From a bacterium (GTDB lineage: Bacteria > Patescibacteriota > Minisyncoccia > Phycocordibacterales > Zambryskibacteraceae), in contig JAHFOF010000002.1 of the NCBI GenBank assembly GCA_023266935.1, positions 4,469-68,468 of the forward strand: a DNA stretch of 64,000 bases, read 5' to 3'. Of this stretch, positions 4,266 through 42,757 are shown in pieces (positions within the stretch are counted from its first letter, which is position 1; each line of letters opens with the position of its first letter). Under the pieces are notes generated by a model. That model did no database searches, was not told the origin of the DNA, and saw only the letters and a program-made list of their open reading frames with translations. The translations under genes and the position numbers were made by a program.

Positions 4266-4270
4266 CTCTT

Positions 4271-4299
4271 GACTTTATTATCTTATTATGCTAATATAT
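4271..4299 (+). promoter_or_regulatory. Sigma70-type promoter TTGACT-17-TAATAT upstream of the small ORF
   Basis: -35 TTGACT, a 17-nt spacer and -10 TAATAT, about 40 nt upstream of AGGAG-N7-ATG. Confidence 0.5.
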
Positions 4300-4341: not shown

Positions 4342-4521
4342 ATGTGGCACTGGATCTTTACCCATCTGACGTATCACCAGTTCGTGTTTGTTTGCGTTTA
4401 CCTCGTGGTCATGACGTTCGTGCTTAGGCACAAGATGCTCGCTGATCGACGACTCCGGATGCTGGGCGAGGTGCCTCGCGAGATTGGTGAGGTTTTTCAT
4501 TGGGACGATCACAGAGCGTAG
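4342..4521 (+). CDS. Small His/Trp-rich membrane protein, 59 aa (MWHWIFTHLTYHQFVFVCVYLVVMTFVL...), GC-enriched; below the track's 60-aa cutoff
   Basis: Consensus promoter, SD AGGAG 7 nt upstream, one predicted TM helix, and a perfect intrinsic terminator immediately downstream. Local GC (~55%) is well above the flanks. Confidence 0.45.
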   Translation: MWHWIFTHLTYHQFVFVCVYLVVMTFVLRHKMLADRRLRMLGEVPREIGEVFHWDDHRA

Positions 4522-4540
4522 TCCCAAGCTCGAAGACAAA

Positions 4541-4580
4541 AAGGGCGGGTCCAAACAGATCCGCCCTTTCTTCTATTTTT
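4541..4580. terminator. Bidirectional intrinsic terminator (stem AAGGGCGG/CCGCCCTT, 12-nt loop, T-run). It serves the small ORF on the plus strand and rpoD on the minus strand.
   Basis: A perfect 8-bp GC stem read directly. It is followed by TCTTCTATTTTT on the plus strand and a T-run on the minus strand, 2 nt from the rpoD stop. Confidence 0.6.
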
Positions 4581-5841: not shown

Positions 5842-7467
5842 TTACACTATTTTTCTTTTCTCTTCATCTATCTTCTGACTCAGAGCATGAATTTTCTGCA
5901 CAAGCTCCTCGATTTCGTTCGGCCCTCGAGCGAGCTCTGCCTGCAAACCGGACCGTTCTTCTTCAAGAATAGTAATGGTCAAACGTTGTTTGAGTTCAAC
6001 TTCTTCTTTTTGAGAAATTTCAAATTCTTTGGTCGATTCGTCTACCTGACCTTTCCAAAAACTGATTTCTTCCAATCTTTCTTCGATTTGTTCCCGACGA
6101 GTATGAACCTTATCTTTTTTTTCTTCTTGAATATCTTCAGTTTGCTGAACGTTTTTTATTTGAAGAATATCTGGAATTTTTGATTTTCTCAAATCATCCC
6201 AAATAATTTCTTCTTTTAATCCTGATTTTTTGGATATAAGAGAAACAAAGTGAGAGCGTTCTATAGAACTTTCCAATAAAGTAAGCAATGGCAAAACTTT
6301 TGCATTTATGGCTTTACCTAATTTTCTATCATCCTTCTCGTTTTTAATTATTTTATTAAGAACAAATTCAATACTGTGGGTGGATTTTCGAAGTACTTCT
6401 TTCCATTCTTCTGGGTCTTTTTTGGACAAATCTGCTGGGTCTCTTCCTTCGGGAAGTTCAGCAATCTTAACCTCCATACCCAAAGAAAGACCTAAAATAG
6501 AGCTTTTTTCAGCTGCTTTTTCCCCCGCCAGATCTCCATCAAACGCCAGAATCAGCCTAGGAGAAAGTCTTTTTAATCTTTCCAAATGAGTTTGAGTAAA
6601 GGCTGTGCCAGACGAAGCTACAACATTTTTCACACCGACCTGATGAGAAAGGACCAAATCTAATTGTCCTTCAACCAAAACAGAATAATTTTTCTTTCGA
6701 ATTTCATCCTTGGCTTTGTCTAGCCCATACAACACTTCACTTTTTATAAACAAACTTGTTTCTGGAGTATTTAGATATTTTGGTTCTGTATCTTTTTCCA
6801 ACGCTCGTCCAGAAAAGGCAATCACCTTACTGTTTACATCAAAGATAGGGAAAATAATTCGACCTCTGAAAACATCATATGGTGTTCCTTCTCCAGAGAT
6901 TTGTGGATTTTCTTTTTCTTCTTTTTGTGGTTGTTTTATTAACCCCGCCTTTAACAAAACCTCCTTGGAATAACCCACTGCACTCAGATGAGAAAAAATA
7001 GAGCGCCATTCTGATGGAGCGAAACCGAGTCTCCATAATTTAATGGAGTCTTTAGAAACCCCTCGAGATTCTAAATATTTTAAGGCTTCAGTATTTTTCT
7101 CTAATTCAGATTGGAAGAAAATGGTGGCATCTTCGAGAGCATTGTAGAATTTATCTTTTTCAGATTTTGATTCTCCTCTATTAGAATATTCTAATTCTAC
7201 ACCTGCTCGTTCGGCTAAAGTTTTTAATGCTCCTTTAAAATCAACTCCCTCCATCTCTTCGACAATACTAAAAATATCTCCTTTCGCCCCGCAACCAAAA
7301 CAGTAATAACTTTGCCTTGAAGGCGACACGAAAAAGGATGGAGTTTTTTCATTGTGGAACGGACATTTACCTTTGAAGTTCTGGCCCGCTTTTTCGAGTT
7401 TGAGGTATGAGCTTACAACTTCAACGATATCTAGTCGTTCTTTGATTGAATCGACTGTGCTTCGCAT
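5842..7467 (-). CDS. dnaG: DNA primase DnaG
   Basis: Zn-ribbon CPFHNEKTPSFFVSPSRQSYYCFGCG, TOPRIM motifs EGQLD and DGD, and a coiled-coil C-terminus. The N-terminus overlaps the rpoC 3' end by 37 nt. Confidence 0.9.
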   Translation of the reverse strand: MRSTVDSIKERLDIVEVVSSYLKLEKAGQNFKGKCPFHNEKTPSFFVSPSRQSYYCFGCGAKGDIFSIVEEMEGVDFKGALKTLAERAGVELEYSNRGESKSEKDKFYNALEDATIFFQSELEKNTEALKYLESRGVSKDSIKLWRLGFAPSEWRSIFSHLSAVGYSKEVLLKAGLIKQPQKEEKENPQISGEGTPYDVFRGRIIFPIFDVNSKVIAFSGRALEKDTEPKYLNTPETSLFIKSEVLYGLDKAKDEIRKKNYSVLVEGQLDLVLSHQVGVKNVVASSGTAFTQTHLERLKRLSPRLILAFDGDLAGEKAAEKSSILGLSLGMEVKIAELPEGRDPADLSKKDPEEWKEVLRKSTHSIEFVLNKIIKNEKDDRKLGKAINAKVLPLLTLLESSIERSHFVSLISKKSGLKEEIIWDDLRKSKIPDILQIKNVQQTEDIQEEKKDKVHTRREQIEERLEEISFWKGQVDESTKEFEISQKEEVELKQRLTITILEEERSGLQAELARGPNEIEELVQKIHALSQKIDEEKRKIV

Positions 7468-10400
7468 ATAAGTTTTTCTTTATACCCACCTTTGAAGCCG
7501 GTTCCCGCAGGAATCATGCGCCCGATAATAACATTTTCTTTGAGTCCTAGTAATTCATCTTCAGCGCCTCGTATAGCCGCTTGGATAAGAACACGGGGAG
7601 TATGCTGGAACGAAGCTGCTGAAAGGAATGACGAACGAGAAAGAGAAACTTCAGAAATACCCATGATAACCGCTTCAGCTTTCGCTTCTTCCTTGTCATT
7701 CTCTCTGGCTTTGTTGTTCACATCTACAAAATCTGAAACTTCGACAATATCCCCTCGGGTGAACATCGTGCTTCCGGCTTCTCGAATCTTTCTTCGAGAA
7801 AACATCTGACGAACAATCAATTCAATGTGTTTGTGAGATACGGCTGCGCCTTGAAGTTCATAGAGCTTAGAAACTTCGTGAATAATATAGTTCTCTGCTT
7901 TTTCTCGACCCGCATATCTGAACAATTCATCTAAGTCTGCTGAGCCATCAGTCAAGAATTCTCCCTTTTTCACAGTATCTCCCATTTTAACCAAAATTGT
8001 TCTATTTGGACCGATAGAATATTCGTTATCAAGCTTTTTCGCCTTAGTTTCTCCTAATTCTGGAGTAAGAATAATGGTACGATCTGTTCCTTCAATTCTT
8101 ATTTCACTCACTAGACCATCGAGATGAGAGATGGTCGCTGGATTCTTTGGTTTTCTCTTCTCAAAGATTTCTTCAACACGAGGAAGACCCTGGGTAATGT
8201 CTCCGGCAGCAGAAGCCACTCCTCCAGCATGGAATGTTCGCATCGTGAGTTGTGTCCCTGGTTCACCGATGGCTTGAGCAGCCACGGTTCCAACCGCTTC
8301 ACCAAGTTCAACAATTTTGTTTGTACCCAAATCCGCACCATAACACTTCACACAGACTCCATGGAGTGATTTACAGGTCATCGGTGAGCGAACCTCAACA
8401 CTTTCGATGTTAGCGTTCTCAATGATAACGGCATCATTTTTTGTGACAAAATGTCCTTTCTTAAACAGAATTTCGCCCTTTGCATCTGTGACGTCTTTGG
8501 CCAAAAAGCGACCTTTAATAGTTTTGGATAAAGGTATTTCGATTCCCGATGCTGTTTTCTTGGAGATGATTGTGCTCTCTTTAGTACCACAATCATCTTC
8601 GCTCACAATTTCATCTTGAGCCACATCGAAGAGACGACGAGTAAGATAACCCGCCTTCGCTGTGTTGAGAGCTGTATCAGTTAAACCCTTTCTAGAACCG
8701 TGAGTAGTAATGAAGTATTCGAGAGGAGTAAGACCTTCTTTGTAACAAGAAAGGATTGGGAATTCGAGAGATTCTCCAGCCACATTTTGAATAATACCGA
8801 TCATGCCAGCCATCTGGTTTATTTGACCAAGAGATCCTCTGGCTCCAGAACGAATAAGATCATGAACAGACCCTTTGTCTCCTAGAGTATCCGGAAGAAG
8901 AGCTTCAATTTCACCTCTGACTGATTGCCATTTTTCAACTGTTTTTTGAATTCTTTCTTGTTCAGTTAGAAGACCTCCATCGTATTGGTCTACAACCTTT
9001 AGAACGTCTTCCCTTCCACCTTGAATCAAAGCTTCCTTAGCACTAGGAATCTTTACATCAGTTAGACTCCAGGTTGTTCCGGAGCGAGTAGCATATTTGA
9101 ATCCGAAAGCCTTAATCTTGTCTATGATTGAAGGAATTTTTTCAAGACTATAGTGTTCGATAAGATCATCGATTAAACTACCCATCTTTTTGCTATTCAT
9201 CTCATAGTTTTGGAATGGATAATCTTTTGGAAGAACAGAGTTGAAGAGTAATCGACCGACTGAGGTCTCAAACAATTTTCCATCGAAAGCTTTATACTTT
9301 GGAGTATCTGTTGGAAGAACTTGAATCTTCGCTCTCAAACTCAAAGCATCGAAATCAGTAGCAAGTATCGCGCTATTCGGAGAAGAGAAATATTTTCCTT
9401 CCCCCTTCTCACCATTCACGATTCGAGTAGCCCAATAACTTCCTAAAACCAAATCCAGTTTATCAATAGAAAGGACGAGGTTCCCATTTCCAGGTTTTAG
9501 AATGTTTTTATCTGCAGCCATGATAAAACGTGCTTCGGCTTGGGCAGCGTCTGATAGAGGTACGTGGACAGCCATTTGGTCTCCGTCGAAATCGGCATTG
9601 AATGCGGTACATACAAGTGGATGAAGTTGGATAGCATTTCCTTCAATCAACGTTGGTTGGAAAGCTTGAATACCCAAACGGTGGAGGGTGGGTGCGCGGT
9701 TGAGAAGAACGTACTTACCAGCAATAATGGTTTCAAGGATTGACCAAACTTCTGGGATAGCATCTTCAATTAATCTTCGAGCACCTGGGATGTTATAAGC
9801 TAATTCTCTCTTCAAAAGTTCTGAAATAATAAACGGTTTGAAGAGTTCAAGGGCCATGTGTTTGGGTAAACCACACTGATGAAGTTTAAGTTCTGGACCA
9901 ACAACGATTACCGATCGTCCAGAATAATCCACGCGTTTCCCTAAGAGATTTTGTCTAAACAATCCTCTTTTGCCCTTGAGATTATCCGAAAGTGATTTAA
10001 GCGGCCGACGTTGTGATTGGCTTCCAGCAGCTGTACCGTGTCGAATAGTATTGTCGATGAGAGCATCTACTGCTTCCTGTAAAATTCTCTTTTCGTTGCG
10101 CAAAATAACGTCTGGAGCTGAAATTTCTTTAAGCTTTTTTAGACGATTATTTCTGTTTATCACACGACGATATAAATCGTTTACATCTGAAGTAGCATAT
10201 CGACCACCATCGAGAGGAACCATGGGACGAATCGCTGGTGGAATAACTGGAATACGAGTCAAGAACATCCATTCTGGTCTGATATTAGCGAGCCTCATCC
10301 ATTGGATGGTACTAATTCGCTTATTGAGTCTAGAAATTTCTGTTGAAGGAGCTGTCTCGAGTTGAATTTCAAGTTCTTTCTGGAGTTTAACTAAATCCAC

Positions 10401-17470: not shown

Positions 17471-17528
17471 GGGTCATATAGTAGCAATAAAGTAGAACGA
17501 GGTCAATAAGTCTGCTATAGTTAGAAAA

Positions 17529-25150: not shown

Positions 25151-25226
25151 GCTTTTTCTCCTCTGGGTTGGCCCATATTGGGTATTTCTAATTCTCCTTA
25201 CATACTAGCACAAGATAAGTAAAAAG

Positions 25227-25805
25227 TCAAATGTTCTTCAAAAAGCTTTTCCTATGAACCATACTTGCTCCAAATTTGCGTATCGTCTTCCTATGATCTA
25301 GTGTTCCATAACCTTTGTGTTTATGGAAATTATATTCTGGATATTTTTTGGAAAGTTTAGTCATGTATATGTCTCGAGTAACCTTGGCACAAATTGAAGC
25401 TAGAGAAATAATCGCTACCTTCTCATCCCCTTTTATAATCGTCTTTTGGTTTTTAAAATTCTTCGGAGCTTTTATTCCTCCGTCCAGAAATATTTTCGAG
25501 TCTCGTGGAACTTTTAATTTTATCAAACATTTCTTAATCCCTAGATTTATCGCATAAACGATTCCCTTTTTATCAATAATTTTTTCTGAAATCAAACTCA
25601 CTGCAAACTCAAGTTCCCCTTTTTTCTGCATTTCTTTAGCCAAAGAGAACCAAAATTCTCGTTCTTTGAGTTTGAGCTGTTTTGAATCTTTAATTCCCCT
25701 AAGAAATTTTTTATTGGATGAATCGACTAGTTTAACTGCCCCCACTGACACTGGGCCAGCGAGTGGTCCGCGCCCAGCTTCGTCTATACCGACTATATAT
25801 CTCAT
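25227..25805 (-). CDS. rnhB: Ribonuclease HII
   Basis: IVGIDEAGRGPLAGPV catalytic motif. The start is placed at the internal Met (MRYIVGIDEAG). Confidence 0.85.
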   Translation of the reverse strand: MRYIVGIDEAGRGPLAGPVSVGAVKLVDSSNKKFLRGIKDSKQLKLKEREFWFSLAKEMQKKGELEFAVSLISEKIIDKKGIVYAINLGIKKCLIKLKVPRDSKIFLDGGIKAPKNFKNQKTIIKGDEKVAIISLASICAKVTRDIYMTKLSKKYPEYNFHKHKGYGTLDHRKTIRKFGASMVHRKSFLKNI

Positions 25806-31440: not shown

Positions 31441-31456
31441 CCATCCTTTCGGATCG

Positions 31457-31666
31457 CTAGGTTAAAGCCGACTGATCACCACCCTTGTTGTTTGATTGCT
31501 CTTCGAGAAGACCGTGACTGATATAAAAACTAATCCTAGAAAATGCTGACATCTTGAACGGACACGGTTCACGTCCGCATGTTGTCACAGCACCCTCTGG
31601 GACTGCCCGATGACAAACCCTACAATTTTCTGTCTTCTTCTCGTTCCCGTCCTCCAATCGAGACAT
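31457..31666 (-). CDS. Small Cys4 zinc-ribbon protein (69 aa) immediately downstream of gyrB
   Basis: Ideal SD AAGGAGG-N5-ATG. CxxC-x11-C-x4-C spacing (CRVCHRAVPEGAVTTCGREPC). GC-enriched. Confidence 0.5.
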   Translation of the reverse strand: MSRLEDGNEKKTENCRVCHRAVPEGAVTTCGREPCPFKMSAFSRISFYISHGLLEEQSNNKGGDQSALT

Positions 31667-31717
31667 CTGAACCTCCTTTGGGTGATCCTTCTTTTTAGGA
31701 TACTAAAACACTATGCC

Positions 31718-39164: not shown

Positions 39165-39896
39165 TTATTCCTTTTTTGGTTCTTCGGTTGGTTTTTGTTT
39201 AGAAAGACCCATCTTATAAGCAGAAACGATTTCTCCTATGATATATGAGATGCTGGCTTGACTTGAATCATTGGCTGGTATCGCGAAATCTACAGAATAC
39301 AAATCACAATCAGAACCGGCGAGAGCGATCACTGGGATTTTCATTTTTTGTGCTTCAGAAACAGCAATGGATTCTTTTTTGGGATCAACAACCACAACGA
39401 TTTTTGGAAGAGCTTTCATGGTGGCTAGACCAGCAAAATAAATATTGAGGTTTTCTATCTCTCGATCAATCAAAAGTCTTTCTTTTTTGGTATATTTACC
39501 CAGCTCTCCTCGTTCCTTCTGGCCCATCAAATCTTCCATCTTCGCAATTCTTTTTTTGATTTCAGAAAAGTTTGTGATCGATCCTCCAATCCATCGTCCT
39601 GCAACGAACGGCATCCCAAGTTCTTTGCCCGCCTTCTCTACTGCCTTTCGAGCTTCTGATTTGCCTCCAACAAAGAGAACTGACGCTCCGGTAGAAGCTT
39701 TGTCCTCTACAAATTTTAAAGCCTTCTCGAGTGCTGTTTTAACCTTTTCGAGGTCAAAGATTTCAATCTTGTTTTTGATACCAAAGATATATTCCTTGGC
39801 CGAAGGGTGTCGGCGGGATTTTACAAAACCAAAATGAGCTCCTGCTTTGAAGAGCTCGTTGATTTTTGGGTCATTTGAAGCCGTTTTGTCTGTCAT
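39165..39896 (-). CDS. rpsB: 30S ribosomal protein uS2
   Basis: uS2 core (LFKAGAHFGF, VLFVGGK) with the usual rpsB-tsf order. Confidence 0.9.
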   Translation of the reverse strand: MTDKTASNDPKINELFKAGAHFGFVKSRRHPSAKEYIFGIKNKIEIFDLEKVKTALEKALKFVEDKASTGASVLFVGGKSEARKAVEKAGKELGMPFVAGRWIGGSITNFSEIKKRIAKMEDLMGQKERGELGKYTKKERLLIDREIENLNIYFAGLATMKALPKIVVVVDPKKESIAVSEAQKMKIPVIALAGSDCDLYSVDFAIPANDSSQASISYIIGEIVSAYKMGLSKQKPTEEPKKE

Positions 39897-39976: not shown

Positions 39977-40414
39977 CTACACGAGGCGGGGCAACGAATC
40001 ACGAATAATCTTTAACGCTAACCCAGTTTCTCGAGTCCTTGGAATGACAAGGATACCAAGACGGAATGCGAGTTCAATCTCGCGCTTCATTCCATCGGTG
40101 ATTCTGTCACCATAGAGCCAGAGCTCATCAATGAAACCGCGCCTGAAATACTCTTTGTTTACGCTTCTTTCGAGCCTTTTGTCTCTCTTGCTGTTTCCAA
40201 GATAGCGTCTCCAAACGAGACTCGGAAAAACTGGAATGACGCGTGAAGAATGGATTCGAAGGCAAATCTCGATAACCTTCTGCGTATTACCCTCGATATC
40301 TCCAGACATCGGATGGGCAACAAAAACCATTTTTTTGGCCACAACAACCTCAAGGTTGAAGAAATTCGAACTATCTAAATCATTGATACCAAAATTTATA
40401 ATCGGAGTCAACAC
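39977..40414 (-). CDS. DUF4406-family protein (nucleoside 2-deoxyribosyltransferase-like fold). The likely true start is the internal ATG at ~40330 (MVFVAHPMSG).
   Basis: The segments VAHPMSGD...LYGDRITDGMKREIELAFRLGILVIP fit the DUF4406 pattern (IAGPMTG...PGWExSxGAxxExxxAxxLGxPV). The track ORF starts at a GTG. Confidence 0.5.
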   Translation of the reverse strand: MLTPIINFGINDLDSSNFFNLEVVVAKKMVFVAHPMSGDIEGNTQKVIEICLRIHSSRVIPVFPSLVWRRYLGNSKRDKRLERSVNKEYFRRGFIDELWLYGDRITDGMKREIELAFRLGILVIPRTRETGLALKIIRDSLPRLV

Positions 40415-40431
40415 GATTGACGAGGTCCTAC

Positions 40432-40459
40432 CTTGTCATAATTTTTATAAAAAGAAACC
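40432..40459. repeat. Direct repeat module A, copy 1 (CTTGTCATAATTTTTATAAAAAGAAACC). It contains the 12-bp AT palindrome TTTTTATAAAAA.
   Basis: Near-identical to 41082..41110 (26/26 core identity), read directly. Confidence 0.7.
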
Positions 40460-40460
40460 C

Positions 40461-40983
40461 CGTAGTCATGTAGACCTACGGGGGTTGAATGTATTGCACC
40501 TCCCAGATTCGCACGACTCTTTCCATATGTGACTAAAGTCGGTCATCTTGGTGCTATGGGTCTTCCAGAACTCTCCGAGGAGAGATGATTTAAATCGATT
40601 TGCAGTATTCATGCAGTGACTATTCAATCCTCTTGTCACTACACTACACCCGCAAACCTAAAAAACCGCCAGTGGCCTAGTAGGTACCAAGTTTGAGAAC
40701 TACCTGAACTCTCAAACTTATGAGGATTTACCTACTGCTCGAATTACGAGGGTTTATTCTTCACTCTCCGAAGAGAGATTGGAATCTCGCTCCCAAAACC
40801 AATATATACAACTTAGTTATGAGAGCCTTGGAATCCGGAATGTTCACGGTCGACCTTGGATGGTTGCGTGGTCTCGGCTAGACTAGTTTCACCTCATGCC
40901 ACGCATTCCATCGAGCCAGATCATGTAACTCCATTCAGTGATTCTAATACTCGTTCTGTTTCTAGCCTAGCATAACAAATCAT
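40461..40983. ncRNA. Candidate structured ncRNA, unit 1 (~520 nt, unique sequence, no credible ORF). Strand is uncertain, with the minus strand favoured.
   Basis: It is bounded by repeat modules A and B. It has many long perfect stems (e.g. AAGTTTGAGA..TCTCAAACTT, CTCGAATTACGAG). On the minus strand it shows two copies of a CTCTC-(T/C)TCG-GAGAG hairpin, one with a canonical cUUCGg tetraloop. GC is higher than in neighbouring CDS. Confidence 0.4.
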
Positions 40984-41058
40984 AAATGTCAAGCAAATTA
41001 TCATTTCATATTGCTTAATAGTCAAAAAACAGCTCTATTGAGCTGTTTTTTGGGAGCT
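40984..41058. repeat. Direct repeat module B, copy 1 (~75 bp). It has a conserved 30-nt segment AATGTCAAGCAAATTATCATTTCATATTG followed by a bidirectional intrinsic terminator at 41024..41051.
   Basis: About 85% identical to 41408..41480. The hairpin CAGCTC-TATT-GAGCTG is flanked by an A6 run and a T6 run. On the minus strand the module ends with TTGACA (a -35-like hexamer) preceded by an AT-rich UP-like tract. Confidence 0.65.
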
Positions 41059-41081
41059 AATTTAGAATAGTGAGCCCCTGT

Positions 41082-41110
41082 CTTGTCATAATTTTTATAA
41101 AAAGAAAACC
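41082..41110. repeat. Direct repeat module A, copy 2
   Basis: CTTGTCATAATTTTTATAAAAAGAAAACC, matching 40432..40459. Confidence 0.7.
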
Positions 41111-41407
41111 GCAGTCGTTTGACTGGGTTGTTTGATACCCGGAGGCACCTGGCCTCTCAAGCTGAATCTTGAGGCCAGATGTCTGCGGGTTGTTCTACGG
41201 CGCGCCGGCGGAGTGCTTACTCGCCGCGTGCGGCCGTCGAGAACGTCGCCGTGTGCACGTGAGCCAATTCGTACATGGACCTGCTGTTCTGGGTGCCATC
41301 GCGGACCCTGTGCATGTTGCCTCTCGACGTTGAGGGTAGAAGAGCATGTCGGTCACATAGGGAGCGTCCCTTGACCTGACCTTTTTATCGTAGCACAGTA
41401 TAAAAAT
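41111..41407. ncRNA. Candidate structured ncRNA, unit 2 (~295 nt, ~60% GC in a ~37% GC genome). Strand is uncertain, with the minus strand favoured.
   Basis: Very GC-rich with extensive helices (CTGGCCTCTCAAG..CTTGAGGCCAG, CGTCGAGAGG..CTCTCGACG, CGGCG..CGCCG). The only ORF (41132..41374) is Arg/Cys-rich, which looks like a composition artefact. On the minus strand TTGACA-17-TACGAT lies ~7 nt before the first G of GGTCAGGTC. Confidence 0.4.
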
Positions 41408-41480
41408 AATGTCAAGCGAATTATCATTTCATATTGTATAGTTACCAAAAAACAGCCCTGTTGAGCTGTTTTTTGAAAGC
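41408..41480. repeat. Direct repeat module B, copy 2, with an intrinsic terminator at ~41446..41476
   Basis: AATGTCAAGCGAATTATCATTTCATATTG followed by AAAAAACAGCCCTGTTGAGCTGTTTTTT (hairpin with one mismatch, A-run and T-run). Confidence 0.65.
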
Positions 41481-41494
41481 TGATTTTAATTTTG

Positions 41495-42472
41495 TTATTC
41501 CTCCCCTTCTCCCGTGCCGAATTCTTTGGCATTTTGGAGCGCATCGATGATTGGATCCATATAGCCGAGGAAGATTTTTTCTATGTTATGCCAATTTTCT
41601 TTTATTCGGTGATCTGTAATGCGATCTTGGAGAATATTATAAGTACGAATCTTTTCTGAACGGTCGGCTGTGCCTATCTGATCCTTCCTGTTCGCTGAAT
41701 GTTTCGCTGTTTCTTCTTCATCATGTTTGGCTTGAAGCTTGGCTATTAAAATAGACATGGCCATCTCTCGATTCTTCAACTGATTCCTCTGTGAAGTTGA
41801 ACGCACATCTATACCTGTGGCTTTATGAATAATCCTCACCGCTGTCTCAACCTTGTTCACGTTTTGCCCGCCCGCACCTCCTGAACGAGAAGTTTCTATC
41901 TCGATGTCTGTTGGTTTTATCTCTATAGTCGTCTTTTTCCTGATGGGCAGAATAGCCACAGAAGCAGTCGATGTGTGCACTCGACCCATCTTCTCTGTGG
42001 CCGGCACACGTTGAATACGATGAACGCCTGTCTCAAACCTTAGATTTTTATAGACCCCCATACCTCGGATTTCAAACGCTGCTTCTTTGTACCCACCTAT
42101 GGATGTTTCTGAAGTATAAATTGTTTCCACTCCCCAACCCTTTAACCGAGCATATTTGATATACATATCAGCCAACTTTTGAGCAAAGAGAGCTGCTTCT
42201 TCTCCACCTGCTCCAGCACGAACTTCCAGAATGATTTCATTTGGAAATTCCTCATCCTTTTCTTCCTCCTTTAATATTTCATCCATTTGTTTAAGGAGAG
42301 TTTCTTTTTCTCGAACAAAATTAGACAACTCTTCATCGGCCAACGCTTTCATCGATGGATCTCCGGCCGAAATAGTTTTTAGTTCTTCTTCATCCTTTTC
42401 TAAACGTACATAAGTCTCCGCGAGGTAAGCGGTCTTTGGGTTGTTTTTATATTTTGATAAATCAGAGTTCAC
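41495..42472 (-). CDS. prfA: Peptide chain release factor 1
   Basis: GGQ motif [11 protein letters not shown] and the RF1-type PxT tripeptide ([14 protein letters not shown]). Confidence 0.8.
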
Positions 42473-42757
42473 TTATTTCTTGCTGGTCTTCTTTGCCTTC
42501 TTTGGAGTAGCTTTGGCTTGTTTCAATTTAAATCTTTCTACACGACCAGCTGTGTCGAGAACCTTGTCTAGACCAGTATAAAACGGATGAGAGCTCGAAG
42601 AGATTTCGATATTAAAAAGCGGATATTCTTTCTTATCAATCTTGGATTTCTTAGTTTCTTTGGTAACTACAGTCGAAGGTATGATAAATTCTACACCGTT
42701 TGAAGAGTCGACAAATAGTACTGGTCTATAAGTATTTGGGTGAATATCTTTTTTCAT
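42473..42757 (-). CDS. rpmE: 50S ribosomal protein bL31 (type B, no zinc motif) with a Lys-rich tail
   Basis: MKKDIHPNTY start, typical of bL31. Confidence 0.8.
   Translation of the reverse strand: MKKDIHPNTYRPVLFVDSSNGVEFIIPSTVVTKETKKSKIDKKEYPLFNIEISSSSHPFYTGLDKVLDTAGRVERFKLKQAKATPKKAKKTSKK

Follow-up and report, generated by a model that had tools for sequence, protein, structure and literature searches.

A window of 64,000 nucleotides (the whole stretch that was analysed, from contig JAHFOF010000002.1 of GenBank assembly GCA_023266935.1, family Zambryskibacteraceae of the Patescibacteriota) contains a protein-free gap of 1,080 nt between the gene prfA and a gene encoding a DUF7768 protein. 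The question raised by this locus is what occupies the gap. Genomes of the Candidate Phyla Radiation (CPR) are so compact that a promoter-equipped, protein-free stretch of 1.1 kb would hardly be idle, and next to nothing is known of the regulatory and structural RNAs of CPR/Patescibacteria. The reading favoured here, with a probability of about 0.55, is that the gap consists of two independent, co-oriented small-RNA genes predicted on the minus strand and carried by an accessory insertion. Neither RNA belongs to a described family. Accessory small-RNA genes on horizontally acquired DNA are a known kind of element, and the unusual parts are the layout, with shared frames around variable bodies, and the insertion hotspot at prfA. 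All coordinates are those of the 64-kb window unless another contig is named, the minus strand is the direction of prfA and rpsB, and the features are collected in Table 1.

Modular architecture of the gap

A preliminary description, made from the letters of the sequence, had reported a gap of more than 1 kb without a credible open reading frame (ORF). This was borne out, since the gap is the largest non-coding stretch of the window and no significant Pfam match was obtained with its ORFs. Two units adjoin head to tail with 8-nt joints, in the block order B2-body2-A2|B1-body1-A1, and the first base of the module B of unit 2 lies about 8 nt past the prfA stop codon. Module A (CTTGTCATAATTTTTATAAAAAGAAA) is present in exactly two copies identical at 26 of 26 positions, and the similarity extends over 39 nt at 87%; it comprises the terminator U-tract plus about 20 more conserved nucleotides. 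Module B is a 105-nt repeat with 78% identity between its copies, which include an A6-hairpin-T6 element and a 29-mer core (AATGTCAAGCRAATTATCATTTCATATTG) that agrees at 28 of 29 positions, the sole difference being the R position. Both repeat pairs and the A6-hairpin-T6 element had been recognised correctly in the preliminary description, and only the lengths given there, 27 nt for module A and 30 nt for the core of module B, had to be adjusted to 26 and 29 nt. The search for more copies proposed in the same description was carried out on the window, where none was found and 0 are expected by chance; two metagenome scans and several scans of viral sequences did not reveal any either.

Predicted promoters, terminators and direction of transcription

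A promoter scan located TTGACA-17-TACGAT in unit 2 (10 of 12 matches, with an upstream TG), the same -35 and -10 elements at the same 17-nt distance that had been picked out by eye. In unit 1, the sequence TTGACA-17-TAGGCT, with TGC in front, was read directly. The motif TTGAC-N15-TGCTA was found at five sites in the window (0.11 expected), two of them in the units and three before genes. As these three other sites are directly upstream of genes, the motif is regarded as the organism's own strong promoter, and TTGAC-N15-TGCTAnnnT, that is, a -35 element plus the extended -10 TGC-TAnnnT, is apparently the consensus of strong promoters in this lineage. Two chance matches to a 21-mer of module B were obtained in a pattern scan, one of them in the queC promoter of an unrelated bacterium, and the fact that a sigma-70 promoter hosts a chance match indicates that this 21-mer is very promoter-like.

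The hairpin and U-run that close each body were found only in the minus orientation; read on the plus strand, the terminator hairpin of unit 1 lacks a T-run after it. The hairpin of module B2 is fully paired on the minus strand by means of a G-U pair, and a C-A mismatch is present at that place on the plus strand; transcription of prfA probably stops at this hairpin, which would shield unit 2 from it. The native promoter motif and the minus-only terminators support the predicted transcription of two co-oriented units on the minus strand that reuse one promoter/terminator frame, as the preliminary description had proposed. Each unit displays the features by which sigma-70 small-RNA genes are recognised: a host-consensus promoter, a downstream terminator on the same strand and no ORF between them.

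According to the favoured reading, each unit would start with the A6-hairpin-T6 terminator, which would keep out transcription from prfA or from the unit before it, and continue with the UP-like tract and the TTGACA -35 element (which together with the hairpin form module B) and the extended -10 element. The densely folded body, its closing hairpin with the U-tract and a conserved A/U-rich tail (module A) would follow. The predicted RNAs would be about 280 nt (unit 2, 61% GC) and about 510 nt (unit 1) in length.

One further site of the promoter motif (4269-4293) precedes a 62-aa ORF (4343-4531, plus strand) that is hydrophobic by eye and has a ribosome-binding site and a terminator at about 4538-4570; a longest-ORF gene call favours the opposite strand at this position.

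Composition, folding and coding potential of the bodies

Body 2 has a GC content of 60.8% and body 1 of 44.5%. The window as a whole measured 40.2%, which replaces the value of about 37% previously given for the genome. The two bodies are unrelated, in agreement with the preliminary description: their local alignment score (19) is no better than that of shuffled sequences (mean 18.3). Both fold far more stably than their shuffled versions (z about -4.3; none of 100 shuffles did as well), and the predicted folds are multi-branched, not rod-like. In sliding windows of 280 nt, z-values ranged from -1.7 to -8.8 over the gap, from about -1.5 to +1.4 over the flanking genes prfA, rpsB and tsf, and from -2.1 to -2.9 over the adjacent DUF7768 gene. 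The dense self-complementarity described earlier is real, and so are the two CUCUC-YUCG-GAGAG hairpins, which are located 193 nt apart in body 1. The predicted RNAs are long, rich in GC and paired almost throughout. At low confidence, such RNAs are considered more likely to act as folded molecules that bind proteins or have another structural role than as short antisense regulators pairing through a seed. A duplex-folding target prediction against 53 translation-initiation regions was uninformative at this RNA length.

None of the gap ORFs on either strand combines a ribosome-binding site with a plausible product, and no gene remnant was detectable in the Pfam search. The 80-aa ORF that spans body 2 had no relative among 5.8 billion proteins. 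A 57-aa ORF of unit 1 was used as homologue probe and discarded, as it matched only translated tandem repeats. Its best match was a 186-nt tandem satellite (L101, 5950-6685) on a 1.18-Mb contig of the apparently eukaryotic assembly GCA_019364655.1; the spurious translation of this satellite is 30% identical to the unit 1 ORF, an artefact of taking a non-coding translation as query.

Comparison with known RNAs

All 4227 models of Rfam 15 were run on the whole window at the gathering score, and on the gap and each body alone at E≤10 with lax filters. Only tRNA-Thr was detected in the window at the gathering thresholds, and only noise in the gap and the single bodies; ARAGORN found the same tRNA-Thr and no transfer-messenger RNA (tmRNA) in the window. 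The covariance check envisaged in the preliminary description therefore assigned no family to either body, and its finding by eye that they do not match RNase P RNA, tmRNA, signal recognition particle (SRP) RNA or 6S RNA was sustained. Bacterial RNase P RNA (RF00010/RF00011) gave no covariance match at E≤10, its conserved P4 and CR-I motifs were not seen when the sequence was read, and the locus, to which this last argument is confined, is empty in five relatives. For SRP RNA and 6S RNA, no Rfam match was obtained at lax thresholds, and the folds are multi-branched. Nothing above noise was obtained with OLE, GOLLD, ROOL, HEARO and raiA, which the Rfam 15 models presumably include.

Tandem sibling small RNAs such as PrrF1/PrrF2, OmrA/OmrB, LhrC1-4 and AbcR1/2 have shared bodies of 60-150 nt. 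The two units are like them in that they are adjacent and co-oriented and that each has a sigma-70-type promoter and an intrinsic terminator to itself. Their near-identical promoter modules imply common regulation. Unlike sibling small RNAs, the units have unrelated bodies of 255 and 474 nt that are almost fully structured. They also resemble the small RNAs of islands and prophages and the ornate non-coding RNAs (GOLLD, ROOL, HEARO, OLE, raiA), which are long, GC-enriched and multi-hairpin and reside in accessory or mobile DNA, but without any covariance-model match and, so far, in two sister lineages only.

The prfA/rpsB junction in relatives

The gene order rpmE-prfA-rpsB-tsf is conserved across Paceibacteria, and prfA and rpsB are usually about 50-140 nt apart (estimated from tblastn ends). 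An ENA contig with the same prfA protein has an identical gene order and an identical 1080-nt gap. Among the relatives compared (prfA about 78-85% identical), the junction is empty in L087, L088, L095, L096 and L100, with 24-33 nt of intergenic sequence, and nothing essential can consequently reside there. The prfA end ...GAAGAATTGCAATAA overlaps the rpsB -35 element (TTGCAA) in four of these five, L096 being the exception. In L085, the junction is occupied by a 3.1-kb protein-coding insert (6952-10072) with GAAGAATTGCAATAA on both sides, a 15-nt direct repeat that is the signature of an integrated element; from its sequence, the insert looks like an integrated mobile element without a recognisable integrase. 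It includes a two-gene module (69 aa and 86 aa) that is toxin-antitoxin-like by eye, a gene for a 622-aa protein with no Pfam match on record and a terminator-bounded stretch of about 430 nt (about 9510-9945) with short ORFs only. Unrelated protein-coding inserts of 0.4-1.7 kb were found at the same junction in the more distant Paceibacteria L009, L002, L004, L014, L023 and L001, that of L009 being like a REP-associated tyrosine transposase by eye.

The varied inserts and the empty junctions mark the prfA/rpsB junction as a hotspot of insertion in this Paceibacteria clade. What has been inserted there includes RNA genes, a phage-type nucleoside deoxyribosyltransferase and a module resembling toxin-antitoxin systems. 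Judged from these comparisons, unit 2, unit 1 and the DUF7768 gene, about 1.6 kb in total, are a lineage-specific accessory insertion, and a candidate joint for precise excision of the filled site is GAAGAAT|TGCAATAA. The two predicted RNAs are accessory, not housekeeping RNAs, and were probably brought in by mobile or phage-like DNA.

A related small-RNA-like gene in a sister lineage

In L081-L084, the junction contains a 273-nt spacer with one small-RNA-like gene. The L081 spacer is flanked by AGAAT, and its promoter (TTGACT-17-TGC-TAGTGT), of the same type as those of the units, is situated directly past the prfA stop codon in the prfA direction; the gene closes with a one-directional terminator before the rpsB promoter. 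The first 85 nt or so of the L081 RNA (7012-7098) match the last 85 nt or so of body 1 with 84% identity, whereas the flanking genes prfA, rpsB, rpmE and tsf are 76-80% identical at the nucleotide level, and the third codon positions of tsf 44%. As the identity of this domain is above that of the flanking genes, purifying selection or recent exchange is suggested. The differences within it break the reading frame (the ATG reads ACG in L081, and a stop codon is gained). RNAalifold with the two sequences predicted a three-helix hairpin with 14 pairs, 2 one-sided changes and 0 two-sided changes; an AGAY/RUCU helix with one C-G to U-A swap can be seen by eye, in two sequences only. The two RNAs of the gap and this relative are candidates for new RNA families.

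The distribution known so far comprises two sister lineages only. A covariance model of the shared domain, run against 53 loci, retrieved only its two input sequences. No relative was detected for the 3' half of the L081 RNA. BLASTN and nhmmer revealed no homologue downstream of prfA in 80 species-representative genomes. The shared-domain pattern gave 0 matches in the metagenome collection, in which the L082 JGI (Joint Genome Institute) contig was not recovered either, so that this sample is apparently absent from it. Viral scans yielded one chance match, located in an ORF for a phage structural protein that looks capsid-like by eye, and nothing else. The sole BLASTN match against phages and plasmids, 47 nt in a bidirectional terminator of a 735-kb phage, was judged to be due to chance.

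Origin of the shared frames

The shared frames around unrelated bodies may have arisen by recombination within the frames, in which case a donor B-body-A and a resident B-body-A would give B2-body2-A2|B1-body1-A1, head to tail with an 8-nt joint. If the frames are indeed recombination sites, they would provide a route for swapping RNA genes as cassettes; if they are not, the locus would still be a clean example of accessory small RNAs and the source of the promoter consensus TTGAC-N15-TGCTAnnnT.

Several points weigh against the reading as two accessory small-RNA genes. Transcription of the units is a prediction from the DNA sequence, and the recombination origin of their frames is conjectural. 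The exact 26-nt core of module A sits past the U-tract, where it has no obvious role in expression. For unit 2, fold energy did not choose the strand, as it reaches -129.8 kcal/mol on the plus strand versus -117.4 kcal/mol on the minus strand, with similar z-values. The shared domain is known from two sequences, in which RNAalifold shows no fully compensatory pair, and body 2 and the rest of body 1 had no homologue in all the collections searched.

Alternative explanations

An unlikely alternative, although the one that survives best, is that the units are mobile non-coding cassettes or elements resembling miniature inverted-repeat transposable elements (MITEs), the modules being recombination sites or terminal repeats used for site-specific integration at the 3' end of prfA, and the promoter and terminator features either serving the cargo RNA or being secondary. 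The 8-nt head-to-tail joints and the start of module B so close to the prfA stop codon fit this proposal, as do the other inserts at the same junction, one with its 15-nt direct repeat. Unit 2 is also flanked by an inverted repeat (CTTGACATTATTTTTATA and TATAAAAATTATGACAAG, 16 of 18 positions), but this repeat is weak at unit 1 (10 of 18) and absent from the L081 unit, and at unit 2 it overlaps the -35 element and the A/T-rich spacer and may be coincidental. An IS110-family recombinase gene that is absent from the relatives lies 6 kb off, although no k-mer of at least 10 nt is common to the gap and the ends of that IS110-like element. Moreover, no further copy of the modules turned up in the window or the scanned collections, the window shows no clear target-site duplication, and the A/B joint folds into the terminator hairpin only, with no attC-like long palindrome.

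A still more doubtful proposal is that of mobile RNA-gene cassettes whose conserved ends recombine, so that unrelated RNAs become stacked at the 3' end of prfA; if true, such cassettes would represent a non-coding equivalent of an integron or of a defence-island hotspot. The cassette system suggested in the preliminary description agrees with the head-to-tail layout and the hotspot, and disagrees with the confinement of modules A and B to this locus in everything searched. As in an array of integron cassettes, variable bodies stand side by side at one place in the chromosome, with a conserved boundary element between them. In contrast to such an array, the bodies are non-coding, no attC-type imperfect palindrome is present at the joint, and no intI was noticed among the precomputed Pfam matches of the neighbours on the contig and in relatives (no dedicated search was made); integron cassettes are also normally promoterless, and each unit here carries its own promoter. 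MITEs and other non-autonomous elements are likewise short and non-coding, and the hotspot location and the end inverted repeat of unit 2 fit them, but in the sequences searched the modules are at this locus only and no target-site duplication is visible.

It is rather improbable that the gap holds decaying, non-functional remnants of a mobile element or of foreign DNA, with promoter- and terminator-like sequences left over or incidental. Orphan bodies without homologues, the foreign-looking GC content of body 2 (61% against 40%) and a hotspot that collects miscellaneous inserts would be expected of such remnants. Decay, however, would erode the frames, which are intact (26/26 and 28/29), and the promoters fit the native consensus, the folding is strongly non-random without a detectable gene remnant, and one domain is better conserved than the adjoining essential genes.

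The next alternative, considered very unlikely, involves the neighbouring gene. This gene had been labelled DUF4406 and scores as DUF7768; its product also matches PHROG 355, nucleoside 2-deoxyribosyltransferase, and relatives are present in viral contigs. The probable start codon of the gene is the ATG at 40330, and since DUF7768 homologues are 110-122 aa long, the non-coding stretch is really about 40331-41494. Unit 1 might then be a leader or attenuator of this gene, or the locus could encode a sense and an antisense RNA transcribed convergently, as in type I toxin-antitoxin systems, with a plus transcript starting from the TGTCATAAT extended -10 element in module A and stopping at the module B hairpin. 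Unit 1 is indeed directly upstream of the gene on the same strand, module A has a well-formed TG-n-CATAAT motif on its plus strand, and the module B hairpin terminates both ways. The leader of about 550 nt that had been suggested is nevertheless not supported, given the strong terminator of unit 1 itself (-16 kcal/mol, then UUUCUUUUU) and the promoter-like site of the gene (TTGACT-17-TATCAA). In addition, DUF7768 homologues in other genomes and viral contigs were found in unrelated contexts with no such RNA upstream, and the gene and the RNAs are consequently not a conserved pair. The plus-strand motif has no -35 element, and type I toxin-antitoxin was rejected because no short ORF on either strand is both hydrophobic and equipped with a ribosome-binding site.

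That standard models missed strongly diverged housekeeping RNAs (RNase P, tmRNA, SRP, 6S) here is scarcely credible. In favour of it, the bodies form structured, GC-rich islands within an AT-rich genome, the 64-kb window yielded none of the four RNAs, and RNase P RNAs of the CPR are known for a divergence that puts them below Rfam thresholds (PMC8172020). Against it, the searches with lax filters, ARAGORN and the reading for P4 and CR-I gave nothing, and the site is empty in five close relatives.

Features of the locus and other observations in the window

Table 1. Position of the genes, repeat modules and predicted signals of the locus, and of the promoter motif in the window.
Feature	Position	Strand	Description
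rpmE	42473-42757	-	first in the minus-strand order
prfA	41495-42472	-	followed by the gap
Unit 2	41072-41494	-	predicted small-RNA gene
Module B2, repeat	41382-41486	-	105 nt
Module B2 hairpin, A6-stem-T6	41447-41474 (approximate)	-	putative bidirectional intrinsic terminator; fold -17.7 kcal/mol (minus)
Module B2, 29-mer	41408-41436	-	A/T-rich UP-like tract and -35 TTGACA (41415-41410)
Unit 2 extended -10, TGC-TACGAT	41387-41395	-	predicted start of transcription near 41380
Body 2	41126-41380	-	255 nt, 60.8% GC, multi-hairpin fold, no homologue found
Unit 2 intrinsic terminator	41099-41125	-	predicted; hairpin 41112-41125, then CGGUUUUCUUUUU tail
Module A2	41072-41110	-	39-nt repeat, exact 26-nt core 41082-41107
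Unit 1	40422-41071	-	predicted small-RNA gene
Module B1, repeat	40959-41063	-	105 nt
Module B1 hairpin, A6-stem-T6	41023-41052	-	putative bidirectional terminator upstream of the unit 1 promoter; 13-bp perfect arms; -18.3 kcal/mol
Module B1, 29-mer	40985-41013	-	includes -35 TTGACA (40992-40987)
Unit 1 extended -10, TGC-TAGGCT	40964-40972	-	predicted start of transcription near 40957
Body 1, 5' and middle part	40569-40957	-	both CUCUC-YUCG-GAGAG hairpins (40763-40779, 40570-40586); no homologue found
Body 1, 3' domain	40484-40568	-	84% identical to L081 7012-7098; predicted three-helix hairpin
Unit 1 intrinsic terminator	40445-40483	-	predicted; hairpin CCCCGUAG...CUACGGGG (40458-40483), then UUUCUUUUU; -16.1 kcal/mol
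Module A1	40422-40460	-	39-nt repeat, exact 26-nt core 40432-40457
DUF7768 gene	39977-40330	-	117 aa; PF24963, E 7e-15; own promoter-like site (about 40377-40405) and terminator
rpsB	39165-39896	-	after the DUF7768 gene
tsf		-	after rpsB
tRNA-Thr		-	after tsf
TTGAC-N15-TGCTA	4269-4293	+	before a gene
TTGAC-N15-TGCTA	17482-17506	-	before a gene
TTGAC-N15-TGCTA	25206-25230	-	before a gene
TTGAC-N15-TGCTA	40968-40992	-	in unit 1
TTGAC-N15-TGCTA	41391-41415	-	in unit 2

The IS110-like element (47433-49013) encodes, in an ORF on the minus strand (47695-48789), a 364-aa transposase of the IS110/IS116/IS902 family (PF02371, E 1.4e-6). It has non-coding flanks of 262 and 224 nt and is inserted between pfkB and a fructose-bisphosphate aldolase gene, two genes that are direct neighbours in L081, L085, L087 and L088. 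A bridge RNA could be encoded in the upstream flank, where Rfam gave no match. Two other intervals of the window were noted. A segment of 277 nt (31441-31717) has 47% GC and no long ORF, and a 519-nt gap left by the crude ORF caller (912-1430) reads as coding, exonuclease-like by eye.

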